Assembly (NCBI GenBank): GCA_017539215.1
Contig: JAFYHI010000032.1
Coordinates: forward strand, 1-60,760
Origin: Clostridia bacterium
Lineage (GTDB): Bacteria > Bacillota > Clostridia > Christensenellales > CAG-138
Direction: 5' to 3'
DNA length: 60,760 nt
Shown here in pieces: positions 4,024-60,732 of the stretch (position 1 is the first letter of the stretch; each line of letters opens with the position of its first letter). Below the pieces are notes generated by a model. That model was not told the DNA's origin. It did no database searches and saw only the letters and a list, made by a program, of their open reading frames with translations. Both the position numbers and the translations under genes were made by a program.

Positions 4024-4665
4024 TTATATCTTTGTATAGCCTGCGGCGTTTACCAGACCGTCCAGCTTGCGCCCGCGCTTGCAGTACGGGCATTCGGAGG
4101 ACTGGTAGGAATGGTAATCGGGCACGTCGTCGGGCGAGAACAGCTTGTGTATGGGTACGCCCGCCATGTCGTCGACGGCCGAGAACAGCGCGGCGACGCC
4201 CACCAGATGCCCGCCGTAATAGGCGATGCACTCAAGCGCCCTTTCAAGGCTCCTGCCGGTGGAAACGGTGGAGATAAGCACCAGCACCGACTTGTTTGCG
4301 ACCAGGTTCTGCACGTCGCCCGAGAAAACGAGCTGACCGGAGGAGTTAGACTCCGGCGTGATAACGTAAATGCGGTGGCGTTCGTTCACCCCGCGAGAGC
4401 CCGGCTCCGTTAAAATGTCCGCCACATAAGAGCCTATGACCTGCGTGTATTCAAGGCAGATGATGGTGTCGACGGGCTTGGAATGCGAATAGAACTTTGC
4501 AAGCTCGCGCGCGCAGAGCTTTGCCATATGGCAGTTGGTGCGCATATCGGTAAAGCCCATATAGTGGTCGATATGCGAATGGCTCGTTGCAAAATGCCCT
4601 ATCGAAACGCTGAGCTTTATGTTCTTGTTGCTTTTACAGCTGACTTCCCAGGTATTGGAATTCAT
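4024..4665 (-). CDS. Type I PRTase-fold protein (orotate PRTase-like) with degenerate PRPP loop and C-terminal CxxC
   Basis: GHFATSHSH, VLVLISTVSTGRSL in place of the VVDD...TG loop, ECPYCKRG; TTGCAC-17-TATAAT promoter upstream. Confidence 0.7.
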   Translation of the reverse strand: MNSNTWEVSCKSNKNIKLSVSIGHFATSHSHIDHYMGFTDMRTNCHMAKLCARELAKFYSHSKPVDTIICLEYTQVIGSYVADILTEPGSRGVNERHRIYVITPESNSSGQLVFSGDVQNLVANKSVLVLISTVSTGRSLERALECIAYYGGHLVGVAALFSAVDDMAGVPIHKLFSPDDVPDYHSYQSSECPYCKRGRKLDGLVNAAGYTKI

Positions 4666-4868
4666 TGTGCCGCCTCCTTCGCTTGATTAAATAATTATAT
4701 CACAATCGAAAAGGGTGTGCAATATAAAAAAGTGGGCAAAAGGAAACGCCGAACGCGGCTTTAATTGTCCGAGGCTTTAAAAAACATATTGGATTTTTGA
4801 AAAAAGATTTATAATCATGTTAGGTTCAGCCCTTTTTAAGTGATTTATATGTGAGGAGGTGATATCGT

Positions 4869-5372
4869 TTGCCCGTGAACGATATGGAAGGGGGCACGCG
4901 TGCGCCGGAGCGCGAGCTTGAGGCCGCAATGCGCGAATACTCCGATATGGTCTATCGGATCGCATTGACGCGCCTTAAAAACGTGCAGGACGCGGAGGAC
5001 GCGCATCAGGAGACCTTCCTCACTTTTTACCGCAAAAACAAGCGTTTTTCGGATGAGGAGCACAAAAAGGCATGGCTCATCCGCGTAACGCTCAACTGCT
5101 GCGGGCGTGAGCTTGCAAAGCGGAAAAAGCACGCGGCACTTCCGCTTGAGGAGGCGGAGGCGGCGGTGGAGCAGCGGTTTGAAAGCCCCGCGCTTACGGC
5201 TGTCATGGGGCTTGACGAGAAGCTGCGCACGGTAACGGCGCTGTATTATTTCGAGGGGCTTTCCGCAAGGGAGATCGCTTCCGCACTGCGAATAAGCGAG
5301 GGGGCGGTTTTTATGCGGCTTTCCCGCGCAAGGGCGAAATTGAGAGAGGAGCTGAACGAGGAATGGATATAG
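4869..5372 (+). CDS. ECF sigma-70 factor
   Basis: DAEDAHQETFL, KAWLIRVTLN, region 4 YFEGLSAREIASAL...RLSRAR; GAGGAGG RBS. Confidence 0.9.
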   Translation: MPVNDMEGGTRAPERELEAAMREYSDMVYRIALTRLKNVQDAEDAHQETFLTFYRKNKRFSDEEHKKAWLIRVTLNCCGRELAKRKKHAALPLEEAEAAVEQRFESPALTAVMGLDEKLRTVTALYYFEGLSAREIASALRISEGAVFMRLSRARAKLREELNEEWI

Positions 5373-6415
5373 AGGAGATCAAAAAGGAACTGGCCCCGCG
5401 TGAGGGGCTTAGGGAGGAGGCGCTTGAGCGGGTGCTTGCAAAGGGCCGCGGGAATGCGCGCTTCCACTTTAGGGCGGCGCTTATCTGCGGCTTCGCGGCC
5501 ATTGCCGTCGTGGTGCTGGGCGCCGTGCTTATACCGAAGGGCGAAAAGCCCTCTGCCGAGGCGGAGAATACGCAACGGCCGGAGCCGACACTGAGCAGTA
5601 CCGAGAGCAGTGCCGATAGCACCGCTCAAAGCACGGCGCGGCGCACGCCCAAGCCGGAAATGGGCACCGATGTTTCGCTTGCCGAGTTTGCCGAAGGCAC
5701 GGATCTTTTTTCGCTCATAGATTCCGCCTCGGTGATAATAAAAGGGATTGTTGAAAGCACTGTCGAAAGCGAAACGCTCGATTTCGTCAGCTATGCGGAG
5801 TTTACCGTAACGGAATGCATTCGCGGCGATATCGGTCCCGGCGATACCGTTCCCGTGAGAGCCAACCTCGGAGAGAAGTTGCGTACCGGCAATGAGTATC
5901 TGCTTATGGTCAATCCCATGGCCTCCGTTTTCGAGGGGCGCGAGCTTTTCTATCAGATCGATTCGTATTTCAGCTCCGTCCACGATACGGAATTCAGCGT
6001 GCTAGAAGGCGCAAAGGGCGCGGGCTTTGAAGAGATCGTTGAAAAGGTAAGGGCATACGCCGCCGATAACGAATACTCCGGCAGCGACGTCGGGCGCGGC
6101 TTCTACTGCACTTCGGAGGATATAAAAGATATCGTGGATTATTCCGAGATCGTCGTCCGCGTAAGGGTAAATGAAACGTTCTATGACGGCACGCCGGACA
6201 GGACGAGCTACACCTGCGAGGCCTTGGAATGCCTTAAGGGAAACACCGCAAAGACGATCGACGTGGTCGCCCTGAAGCACGCAATGGAGCCCGGCGGCGA
6301 ATACCTGATGCTGCTTACGCGCTCGTGGGAAGAGCTTTACACCGTTTCAAGCCGAAACAGCGTTTTCCCGGCCGAAAGCCCGGAGGCCGTGCAGATCGCG
6401 GCAATGCTCGGGTAA
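5363..6415 (+). CDS. Membrane-anchored putative anti-sigma factor
   Basis: Overlaps the sigma gene; short cytoplasmic N-terminus, one TM helix, extracellular part with two similar beta-rich repeats. Confidence 0.6.
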   Translation: MDIEEIKKELAPREGLREEALERVLAKGRGNARFHFRAALICGFAAIAVVVLGAVLIPKGEKPSAEAENTQRPEPTLSSTESSADSTAQSTARRTPKPEMGTDVSLAEFAEGTDLFSLIDSASVIIKGIVESTVESETLDFVSYAEFTVTECIRGDIGPGDTVPVRANLGEKLRTGNEYLLMVNPMASVFEGRELFYQIDSYFSSVHDTEFSVLEGAKGAGFEEIVEKVRAYAADNEYSGSDVGRGFYCTSEDIKDIVDYSEIVVRVRVNETFYDGTPDRTSYTCEALECLKGNTAKTIDVVALKHAMEPGGEYLMLLTRSWEELYTVSSRNSVFPAESPEAVQIAAMLG

Positions 6416-12463: not shown

Positions 12464-12539
12464 TGGTACACCTTCAGGGGCTCGAACCCTGGACACCCTG
12501 ATTAAGAGTCAGGTGCTCTACCAACTGAGCTAAAGGTGC
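12464..12539 (-). tRNA. tRNA-Lys (CTT)
   Basis: GCACCTTTAGCTCAGTTGGTAGAGCACCTGACTCTTAATCAGGGTGTCCAGGGTTCGAGCCCCTGAAGGTGTACCA; TTGCAT-17-TATAAT promoter upstream. Confidence 0.97.
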
Positions 12540-27112: not shown

Positions 27113-27181
27113 ATCTATTTGCTCCCTTCGGTAATGTACAAACAAAAAAGCACTCGTTTGAGTGCCGCATAAAAAACCGCA

Positions 27182-27299
27182 CTCATCTTTACGGAGCGTT
27201 CGCTCCGTCGGAATTGGCACCTTGTCCGCATACCGCACGGGCGGTGCGGACAGGTTGCCGTGGCGTCAATGGGCCGTTCCCTCAGCCACTCTCGATAAG
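27182..27299 (-). ncRNA. SAM-I (S-box) riboswitch
   Basis: Minus strand CTTATCGAGAGTGGCTGAGGGAACGGCCC..TGACGCCACGGCAACC...GGTGCCAATTCC...AAAGATGAG, then a gcactc/gagtgc-U6 terminator, upstream of metK. Confidence 0.95.
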
Positions 27300-27433
27300 G
27301 CTATTCTGTTGAAGCTAATATAGCACGGTTTTCCCCCGTTTGCAATAGGGACTGCGGGTATATTTTTGCGCGAAACCATGCCCGTTTCAATTATGCTCTT
27401 GACTTTGCGTCCCCTTCGGTGTATAAACGGAGT

Positions 27434-55883: not shown

Positions 55884-56954
55884 ATGTTTAGATCAGAACG
55901 CTCTGCGCGTATTTTGCGCGCCTGCTGCCTTGTTTTGGCATTGCTTTTTACTCTGTCCTGCGCTGCCTGCAGGGGCGACAGCGGTGAAAAAGTCGCCGCC
56001 GCCGACCCGGCCGGCGCGTCGGAGACCGCCCTCGCCTCGGCCGAACCGGACGCTTCTCAGACCGAAGCCGTGACCGAGGAGCCCACGGCGGAACCCACCG
56101 AGGAACCGACCGAGGAGCCGACTGCGGAGCCCACCGAGGAGCCGACTGAGGAGCCTACCGAGGAGCCCACGGCTGAGCCTACCAAGACTCCCAAGCCCAC
56201 GAATACTCCCACGCCCAAGCCGACGAGGACGCCGAAGCCCACGAACACGCCCAAGCCGACGAGGACGCCGAAGCCCACGGCAACTCCCACGCCCAAGCCG
56301 ACGAGGACGCCGAAGCCCACGGCAGCTCCCACGCCCAAGCCCGACCCGCACGGGTTCCCGCTTCCCGACGGCAGCCATAAATACTTCCTTTATTACGAGA
56401 AGGGCTCATTTACCCTGACCATTTACAAGGTGGGCAGCGACGGCTTCTACTCCAAGGTGGTTGCAAGGTACCGCACCTCGCATGGCGGCAACAAGACCCC
56501 GACGGGCGTTTTCACCCTCTCCAACAGGGAAAAGTGGCATACCTTCGGCAGCACCGGCTATGCGCGCTTTGCGCTTAAATACGCCTCCGGCGTGTACATG
56601 CACGGGCCGCTTTACTACACGAAGAACATATTCAATATCAATCCCAGGTACTACGACGGCGATCACTATATCGGCGGCGCCAACAGCGGCGGCTGCCTCA
56701 GGATGGTCGTCAAGGCCATCAGGTGGATATACGAGAAGTGTCCCGACGGCACCAAGCTGAAGATAGTCAACGGCAGTCCCTTGGGCAGCTCGTCCGACCC
56801 CGTGCCTCCCAGGAACGGCCATAATTACGACCCGACGGACGAGGAGGCGCTGGCTCAGCTCACGCCCGTGCCCACCGCATCGCCCACGGCGGCTCCCACT
56901 TCGGCTCCCACGACCGAGCCCACGGAGCCCACGGAGCCCACCGAAGCGCCGTAA
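55884..56954 (+). CDS. Lipoprotein L,D-transpeptidase (YkuD family) with P/T repeat stalk
   Basis: Signal with CAAC; KTPTGVF, YMHGPLY, ANSGGCLRM, GTKLKI. Confidence 0.85.
   Translation: MFRSERSARILRACCLVLALLFTLSCAACRGDSGEKVAAADPAGASETALASAEPDASQTEAVTEEPTAEPTEEPTEEPTAEPTEEPTEEPTEEPTAEPTKTPKPTNTPTPKPTRTPKPTNTPKPTRTPKPTATPTPKPTRTPKPTAAPTPKPDPHGFPLPDGSHKYFLYYEKGSFTLTIYKVGSDGFYSKVVARYRTSHGGNKTPTGVFTLSNREKWHTFGSTGYARFALKYASGVYMHGPLYYTKNIFNINPRYYDGDHYIGGANSGGCLRMVVKAIRWIYEKCPDGTKLKIVNGSPLGSSSDPVPPRNGHNYDPTDEEALAQLTPVPTASPTAAPTSAPTTEPTEPTEPTEAP
56071..56342 (+). repeat. In-frame coding tandem repeats (TEEP/TAEP, then TPKP)
   Basis: 12-bp units; 33-bp acgcccaagccgacgaggacgccgaagcccacg at 56211, 56247 and 56289. 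Confidence 0.9.
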
Positions 56955-56979
56955 AAAATCGCAAATACAGCCCCCACGG

Positions 56980-57008
56980 TTGAAAAAGCCGCGCGGGGCT
57001 GTTATAAT
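56980..57008 (+). promoter_or_regulatory. Sigma-A promoter of the DIP1984-family gene
   Basis: TTGAAA (56980-56985), 17-nt spacer, TATAAT (57003-57008). Confidence 0.7.
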
Positions 57009-57054
57009 ATCGGGGAAATGAATCGGCAAAGCAGCCGGGAAAGGTTGGCAGAAT

Positions 57055-57507
57055 ATGAAATTGGCTGAAGCATTGCAGGAGCGCTCCGACCTCAACAGGA
57101 GGATCGAGCAGCTTCGTCACCGCCTTACGATGAACGCCACCGTGCAGGAGGGCGAGAAGCCCGCCGAGGATCCGATGGAGCTTGTCGCGGAGCTTGACGC
57201 GTGCGCCGCAAGACTTGAGGAACTGATGGCGCGCATAAATCGCACCAACTCCGAAACGCGGATCGAGGGGCGGACGCTTACCGAGCTTATCGCAAAGCGC
57301 GACGCGCTCACCGTTAAGCTCAACGCTTACCGCGACCTTGTTTCAAATGCGTCCAACGTGGTCAGCCGCGCCACGCGCAGCGAGATCAAGATACTGCCCG
57401 CCGTCAACGTGAAGAAGCTTCAAAAGCAGGTCGACGACATGAGCAGGGACCTGAGGCTCACCGACAACGCCATACAGCAGGCGAACTGGACGAGCGATCT
57501 TATCTGA
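57055..57507 (+). CDS. DIP1984 family coiled-coil protein
   Basis: MKLAEALQERSDL..IEQL, VQEGEKPAEDP, RINRTN, RSEIK, IQQANW. Confidence 0.88.
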   Translation: MKLAEALQERSDLNRRIEQLRHRLTMNATVQEGEKPAEDPMELVAELDACAARLEELMARINRTNSETRIEGRTLTELIAKRDALTVKLNAYRDLVSNASNVVSRATRSEIKILPAVNVKKLQKQVDDMSRDLRLTDNAIQQANWTSDLI

Positions 57508-57520
57508 ATAAACAGAGGTA

Positions 57521-57690
57521 TCTTTTGCGGGGCGAGCGTCAAGCCTCTTCGAGACGGAGGTGAAAAACTGTCTCAACTATGGATCCCGCGAGGGGCCGCG
57601 AAGCCGATCGTAATGCCCGGACAAAGCATACAGGCATTGTTACACACCGAGAGGATCTATAACGCATCACCGGACGCTGACCGCAAAAGA
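57521..57690 (+). ncRNA. Candidate structured RNA downstream of the DIP1984-family gene
   Basis: Nested stems read by eye: 57521-30/57681-90, 57535-40/57673-78, 57551-57/57568-74, 57578-86/57653-61, 57611-17/57633-39. Confidence 0.6.
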
Positions 57691-57718
57691 GAGGGCGGGA
57701 ATGGGGAAATAAAAATAT

Positions 57719-57750
57719 AACGGGCGGCAAGCACAGCCTTGCCGCCCGTT
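57719..57750. terminator. 13-bp hairpin between convergent transcripts
   Basis: aacgggcggcaag/cttgccgcccgtt. Confidence 0.75.
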
Positions 57751-57788
57751 CACTTCTGAAGCCTTTCCGTCTGCACGGCGCGGCGTTT

Positions 57789-58943
57789 TTATTTTTGCAG
57801 CAGCCTCACTATCCACGACCTGTGCACAAGCATTGCCGCCTCGGGGCAGAACTCCTGACAGCAGAAGCAGCGTATGCACTTTTTGCGGTCTATGCGCGGG
57901 GTCTTTTTGCCGCGCGTCGGGCGCATCTCTATGGCCTTTGCGGGGCACAGACGCATGCACTTGCCGCAGGAGATGCACCTATTCGGCACGGGCTTGGGGC
58001 GCTGTTCAAGCGCTTTCTGCACTATGCCGCCAACGAAATCAAAGCGCGAGCCCTTCAAAAACGAAATCGACTGCCGCGGCACCGAGGCAAAGTCCGCGAC
58101 TCTTACGGCCTCCGGGTCGCCGTAAAGGGCTATATCCTTAAGCTCCCCGCACAGCCCGCGCCGCCTTGCTGCGGCAAGCGTCGGCACGCCCCTTTCGTCA
58201 AGGGCTATGAGCCGCGCCGCGACCGCGTCCGCCTCGTATGGCGTCAGGGCCGCTATCACCGCGCCGATATGCCTTGGCGTGCCCGCGGTGGGGCCGTTGC
58301 CCTCCATGCCGTCGACCGCGTCTATCAGCGAAAGACGGGGCCTGAAATGCTCGTTTATATCCACAAGCATATCGGCAAAGTCGTCCACCTCGGGATAAAG
58401 GTAATGCGTTTCGGGCTTGATAAGGCCCGGTATCACGCCGTACATATTCTTGACGGCGGCGCTCATGCCCACCATGCCGTGCGCCTTAAGCTTTGCAAAG
58501 TCTATTATCGCGTCGCAGTCGTCAAGGTAATCGGTGTAGGTCAGCCGCTTCATGGCCGCGCCGTCAATGCTCACGGTGTGCGAGGCGGTGTTGAGGTTCA
58601 GCTTTGCCCCGACTTTTTCGGCCTCCGTCATGCCCGTCACGCGGTAGTTGTGCTCGAGCGAGGCGGGGGTAAACACGCCCCCCGGGCTGTCGCCCACGGT
58701 CACGGCCGCCCCGCGCTCGGTCAGCATCCGCGTCAGCGCCGCAACAAGGCTCGGGTGCGTGGTGGCGCAGGCCGACGGCGGCAGGGGCGCTACAAGATTC
58801 GCCTTTATGACTATCCGCATGCCGGGCCGCACGAAACCGAGCCCGTCAATCGCGCCTATCGCGCGGGCGAGCGCCGCCCCGGCCTCGGAGTAATCGGCGC
58901 AGGGAACTACCGCACAGGTGTATTTTTCAGCCGTTTCCGCCAT
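57789..58943 (-). CDS. DUF362 protein with C-terminal 2x[4Fe-4S] ferredoxin domain
   Basis: IKANL, TTHP, GDSPGG, KLKAH, GMEGNGP, CISCGKCMRLCP and CIRCFCCQEFCP. Confidence 0.88.
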   Translation of the reverse strand: MAETAEKYTCAVVPCADYSEAGAALARAIGAIDGLGFVRPGMRIVIKANLVAPLPPSACATTHPSLVAALTRMLTERGAAVTVGDSPGGVFTPASLEHNYRVTGMTEAEKVGAKLNLNTASHTVSIDGAAMKRLTYTDYLDDCDAIIDFAKLKAHGMVGMSAAVKNMYGVIPGLIKPETHYLYPEVDDFADMLVDINEHFRPRLSLIDAVDGMEGNGPTAGTPRHIGAVIAALTPYEADAVAARLIALDERGVPTLAAARRRGLCGELKDIALYGDPEAVRVADFASVPRQSISFLKGSRFDFVGGIVQKALEQRPKPVPNRCISCGKCMRLCPAKAIEMRPTRGKKTPRIDRKKCIRCFCCQEFCPEAAMLVHRSWIVRLLQK

Positions 58944-60576: not shown

Positions 60577-60652
60577 GGAAGCATAGCTCAGCTGGGAGAG
60601 CACCTGCCTTACAAGCAGGGGGTCATAGGTTCGAGCCCTATTGTTTCCACCA
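60577..60652 (+). tRNA. tRNA-Val (TAC)
   Basis: GGAAGCATAGCTCAGCTGGGAGAGCACCTGCCTTACAAGCAGGGGGTCATAGGTTCGAGCCCTATTGTTTCCACCA. Confidence 0.97.
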
Positions 60653-60655
60653 TTC

Positions 60656-60732
60656 GGCCCGGTAGTTCAGTTGGTTAGAATGCCAGCCTGTCACGCTGGA
60701 GGTCAGGGGTTCGAGCCCCCTTCGGGTCGCCA
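60656..60732 (+). tRNA. tRNA-Asp (GTC)
   Basis: GGCCCGGTAGTTCAGTTGGTTAGAATGCCAGCCTGTCACGCTGGAGGTCAGGGGTTCGAGCCCCCTTCGGGTCGCCA. Confidence 0.97.

Follow-up and report, generated by a model that had tools for sequence, protein, structure and literature searches.

Downstream of a gene of the DIP1984/DUF6847 family, in a 60,760-nucleotide contig from a Clostridia bacterium of the CAG-138 lineage (GenBank assembly GCA_017539215.1, contig JAFYHI010000032.1, positions 1 to 60,760 of the forward strand; hereafter the window), we find a 192-nt RNA (57516–57707, plus strand) that by its sequence and covariation belongs to an undescribed family of pseudoknotted RNAs, about 170–230 nt in length. The RNA has a conserved fold, its relatives form a family spread over several phyla, and the linkage of this family to the DIP1984 gene is strict. 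We suggest, at slightly better than even odds (about 0.55), that gene and RNA are transcribed together and that the RNA accumulates separately and partners the DIP1984 protein, the partnership being a prediction.

Identification of the RNA

The DIP1984 gene (57055–57507 with its stop codon, plus strand) encodes a protein of 150 amino acids, and the RNA starts 8 nt past the stop codon. Two covariance models match the RNA end to end: R1, built from seven sequences (the window and six genomes of the same genus), scores 172.1 bits, and R2, built from 53 sequences with the window and its genus left out, scores 80.9 bits over the full length (E 1.6e-24). The six genomes of the genus also gave full-length BLASTN matches of 67–73% identity, among which the two outer stems covary. 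The window copy has the features by which we define the family, namely the stems P1 and P2 with a GGCG junction, the pseudoknot PK1, a hairpin P3 whose loop forms a second pseudoknot with a downstream GCCC, and a YNACC motif before the 3′ strand of P2, all located just 3′ of DIP1984.

An initial annotation of this DNA had assigned the RNA to no named family, and this agrees with a cmscan against Rfam 15 (4227 families). At the gathering score nothing in the whole window falls on the RNA, the only matches being a SAM riboswitch and three tRNAs elsewhere. When E values up to 10 were admitted for positions 56900–57900, there were three chance matches, of which HOTAIR_2 (E 7.8) overlaps the first 53 nt of the RNA. 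In 20 homologous loci searched at E up to 1 nothing covered the RNA, and ARAGORN found no tRNA or tmRNA at the RNA in seven loci, including five that carry the T-arm described below. We considered and rejected a riboswitch or other 5′ cis-regulator: the RNA is always 3′ of DIP1984 and the genes further downstream are not conserved. In the parts of the literature that were accessible, which for septicolysin consist of work on Acinetobacter plasmids and other genome surveys, we found no description of an RNA partner of DIP1984/DUF6847 or septicolysin, supplementary motif lists being beyond the scope of this search.

The source genome holds one full-length copy; four other matches span only 14–20 nt (E 0.9–3.2). 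The RNA is thus single-copy in its genome and not a dispersed repeat. The search of related genomes likewise gave one match per genome, except for a second, weak match of 42 nt in one of them (G154).

Conserved structure of the RNA

The pairings listed in the initial annotation are each present in the sequence, and the minimum-free-energy fold includes the two outer stems and the first inner hairpin. The folding energy, compared with chance, is uninformative (z −1.43 for the plus strand, −1.14 for the minus strand). Support for a fold comes from alignments. In a plain MAFFT alignment of 53 sequences 80.0% of the cells pair, against 68.3% in shuffles, and covariation is 0.378, against 0.188 when shuffled (0 of 500 shuffles as high) and 0.09–0.13 with the partners slid. 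In the model-fitted alignment, which comprises 102 matches and is biased toward nested helices, 87.2% of the cells pair against 64.7%, and covariation is 0.498 against 0.179 shuffled and at most 0.086 slid. An all-against-all mutual-information scan returned only the helices that we describe as supported here and one extra base pair lengthening P1.

The two outer stems had been proposed from the window alone, and both covary across 102 sequences. In P1 (57521–57530 with 57681–57690) 8 of 8 pairs have changed on both sides. P2 (57535–57540 with 57673–57678) is paired in 99.4% of cells, or 99.2% on the plain MAFFT alignment, and 5 of its 5 modelled pairs covary. The junction GGCG (57531–57534), which is among the most conserved positions of the family, lies opposite GA (57679–57680); the 3′ strands of P2 and P1 with this GA between them (57673–57690) are supported by the same covariation.

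The interior of the RNA differs more from what had been proposed. A hairpin gagacgg/ctgtctc does contain a covarying helix, GAGACG with UGUCUC (57551–57556 with 57569–57574), but this is really half of an H-type pseudoknot with an A-rich third loop (PK1, 57544–57574) and no simple hairpin. The helix is its stem S2 (84.0% of cells paired, 6 of 6 pairs covarying), while its stem S1 pairs CCUC (57544–57547) with GAGG (57557–57560) in columns that are 66–93% paired. The P3 hairpin (57587–57600) pairs CGCG with CGCG (57587–57590 with 57597–57600) across the loop AGGGGC, and in the family 78.0% of its cells are paired and 6 of 6 pairs covary; in the window, S1 and the register of P3 were placed by eye. 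From the P3 loop, GGGC (57593–57596) pairs with GCCC (57615–57618) to give a second pseudoknot (PK2, 57593–57618), which is paired in 88.4% of cells, has 3 of 4 pairs changed on both sides, and is thus supported though it was left out of the covariance model. Two further stems that had been drawn in this region (tatggatcc/ggatctata and taatgcc/ggcattg) and a pseudoknot between ggtga and tcacc are not conserved and find no support in the mutual-information scan, and taatgcc/ggcattg competes with the conserved PK2. S1, the P3 hairpin and a conserved G-rich tail that extends the RNA past P1 had been overlooked.

The conserved 3′ half (57619–57672, plus strand), which ends in UCACC (57667–57671), is apparently unpaired. 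It has five invariant unpaired adenines in a pyrimidine-A-pyrimidine context, a motif that occurs 2.24 times per sequence against 0.60 in shuffles. Outside P1 stand a 5′ leader, AGGUA in the window (57516–57520; family consensus GGUAG), and the G-rich tail (57691–57707; family consensus GAGGGYGGGNANGGGGA), within which the contigs from RNA libraries described below end (57700–57706). Both leader and tail are missing from the Bacteroidales forms (our loci L085, L094, L097, L108, L111 and L128) and from an Acinetobacter plasmid form (L136).

Among 97 distinct sequences the majority architecture runs, from 5′ to 3′, through the leader GGUAG, P1, GGCG, P2 and the H-type pseudoknot (S1 as UCUC/GAGA, with the 5′ strand of S2 in its loop), a linker with a conserved UGG, and P3 with a GGGC loop that pairs with a downstream GCCC, a T-arm lying in between; then follow about 45–50 nt that are apparently unpaired, YNACC, the 3′ strands of P2 and P1, and the tail GAGGGYGGGNANGGGGA. 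The T-arm is of canonical tRNA-like type (GGGGUUCGAAUCCCC), sits between the strands of PK2 in 53 of the 97 distinct RNAs, and is 98.3% paired. The window copy is a reduced variant in which the T-arm is absent, as in its whole genus, and gapped in its row of the alignment; it retains the two outer stems P1 and P2, the hairpin P3, both pseudoknots, the tail and the UCACC motif.

The plus strand, inferred in the initial annotation from G-U pairs, is fixed by cells with G-U (four of the pairs, for example, have 11, 10, 8 and 8 of them) together with the shared orientation with the gene. Pairing of the leader GGUAG with YNACC was rejected as a further helix: it shows almost no two-sided changes, 24 of 53 cells are mismatched at one pair, and the mutual-information scan did not return it. 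Between the linker AUGG and a CCAU-like segment, a helix that would close the middle domain can be seen by eye in many sequences; its register shifts and it lacks column-wise support.

Linkage of the RNA to the DIP1984 gene

The initial annotation had proposed a comparison of the regions downstream of DIP1984 homologues across phyla, and conserved sequence and structure with covariation are indeed found there. R1 matched 31 of 151 genomes of the taxonomic family of the source genome at E 0.01 or better. Re-searching these loci gave 27 full-length matches, the window and 26 others, and in 26 of the 26 a DIP1984 gene lies directly upstream on the same strand, its product 47–79% identical to that of the window, while the other neighbours differ. 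In a sample of 151 genomes from across the order the gene occurs in 9, and each of these has an RNA match just after it with filters off, one of them to the tail only (E 0.002); none of the 151 has an RNA match away from a gene. Among 151 genomes across the class, the RNA is found in 7 and the gene in 8, with both adjacent in 6. In one further genome of this sample the gene is accompanied by a weak RNA match (E 0.006), and in another (L140; G407:C8:2195-2424) a DIP1984 fragment covering profile positions 60–123 is followed by a 24-nt remnant of the RNA, so that the two seem to have decayed together.

A search that starts from the protein leads to the same picture. A protein-pattern scan with one genome per species gave at least 581 DIP1984 relatives, the best 80 of which come from Oscillospiraceae, Ruminococcus, Lachnospiraceae, Erysipelotrichaceae, Veillonella, Bacteroidales, Treponema/Spirochaetaceae and Synergistaceae. 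Cultured carriers among the relatives are Ruminococcus flavefaciens 007c and Merdimmobilis hominis NSJ-153. With default filters R1 matched 76 of these 80 protein-found loci, always on the strand of the gene; two of the four misses are sequences that end right after the gene, and the other two match with filters off (E 6.2e-4 and 0.1). R2 places the RNA directly downstream and on the same strand in 100 of 100 DIP1984 loci, 77 of them located via the protein alone. These loci span Clostridia, Erysipelotrichia, Negativicutes, Bacteroidales, spirochaetes, Synergistaceae, Paracoccus, and plasmids of Acinetobacter and Enterococcus; the E value was 4.3e-13 for a replicon of Paracoccus, 5.1e-4 for a plasmid of Acinetobacter baumannii and 1.2e-3 for one of Enterococcus faecium.

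The DIP1984 gene is present on 371 plasmid records, 342 of them from Acinetobacter, and on a few phage records. In IMG/VR we found 12 viral contigs with the gene, and the RNA follows it in 8 of the 11 that were searched. Among nine phage loci that were scanned, the pair lies within same-strand arrays of tRNA genes in three (L144:3001-3744, L145:3001-4022 and L151:3001-3797), and in L144 and L145 a tRNA gene begins 8 nt after the RNA. In bacteria no general link to tRNA genes was seen, such genes lying within 1.2 kb in 5 of 60 loci, four of these from one lineage. Single cases among the neighbours are an RtcB RNA ligase gene 360 nt past the RNA (4302–5483) and a TnpB-like OrfB_IS605 gene upstream (1271–2410), both in L145, and a calcineurin-type phosphoesterase gene just before DIP1984 (L142:1860-2897).

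The spacing of gene and RNA is tight: the median distance between the stop codon and the RNA is 11 nt, and 60 of 69 loci have at most 25 nt. The long spacers hold an inserted gene or an inverted-repeat insert. Small genes that we read from their translations alone as GNAT-like (L074:1656-2105) and MazG-like (L112:1653-2347) are inserted between DIP1984 and the RNA, which is kept. Two copies of the RNA follow one DIP1984 gene at L133:1664-1869 and 1932-2118 (the same in L135) and at L146:3997-4179 and 4798-4984, and in L132 a mini-copy of about 80 nt, consisting of a stem and the G-rich tail only, lies 560 nt beyond the full RNA (1453–1532). When flanking reading frames from 114 loci were clustered, no recurrent neighbour family emerged, the largest after DIP1984 (112) having 6 loci, apart from two antisense shadows over DIP1984; the gene and its RNA are therefore a self-contained unit.

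Closed ends and terminal inverted repeats (P1) could also mark an element that acts as DNA, such as a miniature inverted-repeat transposable element (MITE), a recombination site or an inverted repeat bound by a protein. Such an element would hardly be single-copy and keep to one strand with respect to the gene at 100 of 100 loci. Moreover, many of the pairs are G-U and, read on the opposite strand, would become A-C, the pseudoknots and the T-loop covary, and the stretch occurs in contigs from RNA libraries, all of which makes a DNA-level function highly improbable.

The gene is patchily distributed, occurring in 9 of 151 genomes from the order and 8 of 151 from the class, protein identity of 55–65% is kept across phyla, and the unit travels on plasmids and phages without fixed neighbours. 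Such a spread would fit a conflict module, either a toxin-antitoxin or an anti-phage pair, with the pseudoknotted RNA restraining the protein as in type III systems. However, gene order and RNA form are unlike those of type III, in which tandem short repeats precede the toxin, and PADLOC returned for the protein only a sub-threshold coiled-coil match. The homologue in structure 3kdq was crystallised alone, which may argue weakly against strong toxicity. We regard a conflict module as doubtful.

Transcription and occurrence in RNA libraries

In keeping with the initial annotation, the gene has its own sigma-70-type promoter (56980–57008, plus strand), which consists of TTGAAA, a 17-nt spacer and TATAAT with a TG extension and agrees with the consensus at 11 of 12 positions. 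No other promoter-like site is present in 56800–58000, and there is no terminator between the stop codon and the RNA. Since the spacer in the family has a median of 11 nt and there is no second promoter, co-transcription with the DIP1984 gene is the only economical reading. A GC-rich hairpin beyond the RNA (57719–57750), which had been thought to close the unit, is present but on the wrong strand for that role: its T-run is on the minus strand, and by its score it belongs, as terminator, to the convergent DUF362/ferredoxin gene (57789–58943). We assign it to no strand, as a hairpin common to two convergent units.

Sequencing runs were compared with an 841-nt query (word shares 0.10–0.19; RNA runs 10–15%), and four RNA runs from four studies were compared by means of their Logan contigs. 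The stretch occurs in RNA libraries. Three whole contigs of 185, 176 and 177 nt, each from a different study and of at least 99% likeness, lie on 57522–57706, 57531–57706 and 57524–57700 and fit over their full length without loose ends. In the fourth run a contig of 220 nt (57440–57659) reaches from the end of the coding sequence into the RNA, as transcription past the stop codon would produce. Two more whole contigs, of 178 and 168 nt, agree with the RNA in its conserved 5′ part alone and differ from it beyond, as copies from relatives would. On the coding sequence before 57440 there are no contigs of at least 95% likeness, only two loose-ended pieces of 90–95% at 57141–57175, and the uncovered parts prove nothing. 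The RNA had been described as co-transcribed and perhaps processed out of the transcript. The first half of this description holds as the economical reading just given, whereas for processing the contigs of 176–185 nt give a weak hint, that of a discrete stable RNA species ending at the G tail.

A purely cis-acting role in the 3′ untranslated region (UTR) has several of these observations in its favour. The RNA could be a shield against exonucleases, a terminator or an aid to one, or a feedback operator that responds to the protein or a ligand, with the stable fragment as a by-product of decay. It is always in the 3′ UTR, 5–25 nt past the stop in most loci, a contig bridges it and the coding sequence, and in 50 of the 102 matches the next 70 nt or so contain a terminator-like hairpin with a U-run. 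In several of the Bacteroidales loci listed above P1 is lengthened and runs into a U-tract, doubling as the terminator stem. Yet a stabiliser or terminator would need far less than this RNA has, with its two pseudoknots, its optional T-loop and its roughly 50 nt of unpaired but conserved sequence, and the RNA is kept despite the genes inserted in L074 and L112 and is duplicated in tandem in some loci. We consider a cis-acting element possible though unlikely.

Alternatively, the RNA could be the main actor, either as a ribozyme that cleaves itself, for example at the 5′ leader, or as a ligand-binding RNA, in which case the protein would be a helper or chaperone and the linkage would reflect shared expression. 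The fold has the complexity of a ribozyme and includes invariant unpaired purines (GGCG and the five adenines), and the RNA-library contigs start just past the conserved leader. However, a contig end is not an RNA end, the leader is missing from the forms of Bacteroidales and Acinetobacter, and no Rfam ribozyme or riboswitch matches even at E up to 10. A role centred on the RNA thus seems improbable.

The DIP1984 protein

The assignment of the gene to the DIP1984 family, made at first without database searches, is borne out by profile matches over the full length of the protein that lie well above the curated cut-offs (DUF6847, PF20935, E 2.4e-51, 173.8 bits against a cut-off of 27; NCBIfam NF038048, E 4.3e-55, 186 bits against a cut-off of 70). 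DUF6847 is the only Pfam domain of the protein, and no nuclease domain is among its Pfam matches. The closest solved structure is 3kdq (E 4.5e-26), deposited as an uncharacterised conserved protein. An AlphaFold2 model (pLDDT 86.9) has four long helices and a small sheet, and 3kdq is its sole real match in a Foldseek search of the PDB. The TM score of 0.53 with a large rmsd suggests that the crystal form may be arranged differently from the model. The invariant residues include three arginines, several asparagines and glutamines, an NW motif close to the C-terminus and an acidic loop (VQEGExPxEDP). Scans against PADLOC and PHROGs gave coiled-coil-type sub-threshold matches only; in the ESM Atlas there are only DIP1984/septicolysin clusters and one unnamed, mostly viral cluster at 0.92.

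A predicted RNA-protein pair

We favour a functional pair because the linkage is near-absolute across phyla, plasmids and phages, the spacing is tight, gene and RNA decay jointly, and the fold is richer than a terminator needs. In the proposed sequence of events, the RNA would be transcribed from the DIP1984 promoter as the 3′ part of the same transcript and would fold into a closed body made up of P1, P2, two H-type pseudoknots and the conserved unpaired 3′ half. A discrete RNA would then accumulate, outliving the coding part, and would act with the co-encoded DIP1984 protein as an RNA-protein pair.

Several points weigh against this proposal. Binding of the RNA by the protein is a prediction. 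Foldseek found no known RNA-binding fold (matches other than 3kdq are generic helical bundles with E 0.13 or worse), the protein is near neutral (pI 5.0–9.0 in 13 homologues), and DIP1984 proteins have a conserved acidic loop, VQEGExPxEDP. The features of the protein neither prove nor exclude RNA binding. The leader, the tail and the T-arm are each absent from whole lineages, so that any shared binding site would have to be in the core. The linkage has gaps, with no RNA match in 3 of the 11 phage loci; in one genome of the class sample (G323) the RNA lies 185 nt from the start of its contig with no gene in the preceding 185 nt. Finally, contigs from RNA runs alone show neither RNA ends, strand nor level, and they are a weak hint for that reason.

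A more specific idea is that DIP1984 and the RNA form a particle that mimics the tRNA elbow and acts on damaged or targeted tRNA or other RNA, a functional analogue of Ro60/Y RNA whose parts would be unrelated to those of that system and which bacteria, plasmids and phages would exchange as a weapon or shield in tRNA-directed conflicts. It would draw on the T-arm in 53 of 97 RNAs, the tRNA arrays of the phages, the neighbouring RtcB gene and the five invariant unpaired adenines. We offer it as a speculative analogy that is rather unlikely to be correct.

DIP1984/DUF6847 is a widespread family with a crystal structure, and an RNA partner would turn this orphan protein into a testable two-part system. 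Since the module is compact (about 700 bp with its own promoter), it can be moved and tested as a unit. That so elaborate an RNA travels with DIP1984 across at least six phyla-level groups would add one more class to the few complex-folded RNAs that have a protein partner of their own, and it flags an unannotated RNA gene on common plasmids of Acinetobacter and Enterococcus.

Other features of the locus

The window comes from a 1.64-Mb assembly that is 70% complete. An inverted repeat, cagcccc...ggggctg (56968–57001), flanks the −35 box of the DIP1984 promoter just past an upstream L,D-transpeptidase gene with a YkuD domain (55884–56954), which has long Pro/Thr/Glu-rich repeats at both ends. 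The inverted repeat may be the terminator of the YkuD gene overlapping the promoter, or an operator. The SAM riboswitch of the window is at 27180–27301 on the minus strand, and the three tRNA genes are at 12467–12539 (minus), 60577–60649 (plus) and 60656–60729 (plus), the latter two about 3 kb past the RNA. In one genus (L028, L032, L034 and L037) a SAM riboswitch on the opposite strand lies upstream of DIP1984 and serves a divergent gene.

Comparison with known systems

Of the systems with which the pair can be compared, Ro60 (Rsr) and its Y RNA (YrlA) share an RNA with paired ends, a T-arm (here in about half of the members) and an adjacent gene for a dedicated protein. Ro/Y RNA operons contain RtcB, and one phage copy here lies 360 nt upstream of an RtcB ligase gene. 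DIP1984, however, is an unrelated small helical protein, and the T-arm is dispensable and absent in the window. No TROVE gene (PF05731) was found in the source genome, of which 70% is covered, and no TROVE-like family is among the recurrent neighbours in the 114 loci. YrlA, of which Rfam presumably includes a model, gave no match to the window RNA or in the 20 loci searched.

The genes smpB and ssrA are adjacent, and SmpB with tmRNA thus resembles the present pair in that the gene of a protein of about 150 amino acids adjoins a pseudoknot-rich RNA with a T-arm and paired ends. Here, in contrast, the RNA lacks an acceptor end, a CCA and a tag reading frame, its T-arm is internal rather than 3′-terminal, and the protein has a helical fold. 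OLE RNA with OapA, raiA, ROOL and GOLLD are likewise complex bacterial RNAs with conserved unpaired nucleotides and a neighbouring partner gene; the RNA described here differs in having no Rfam match, in being much smaller (about 190 nt) and located in the 3′ UTR of its partner, and in a linkage that is near absolute across phyla.

Type III toxin-antitoxin systems such as ToxIN also combine a protein and a pseudoknotted RNA in one transcription unit, often on plasmids or phages. Their RNA consists of short repeats arrayed in tandem ahead of the toxin gene, whereas here one long unique RNA lies downstream, and the protein is not a member of any PADLOC system. The omega RNAs of TnpB and IscB, too, are structured RNAs of 150–250 nt that begin at the 3′ end of their protein gene or just after it; unlike those nucleases, DIP1984 has no nuclease domains among its Pfam matches, there are no transposon ends at the locus, and the RNA is single-copy.

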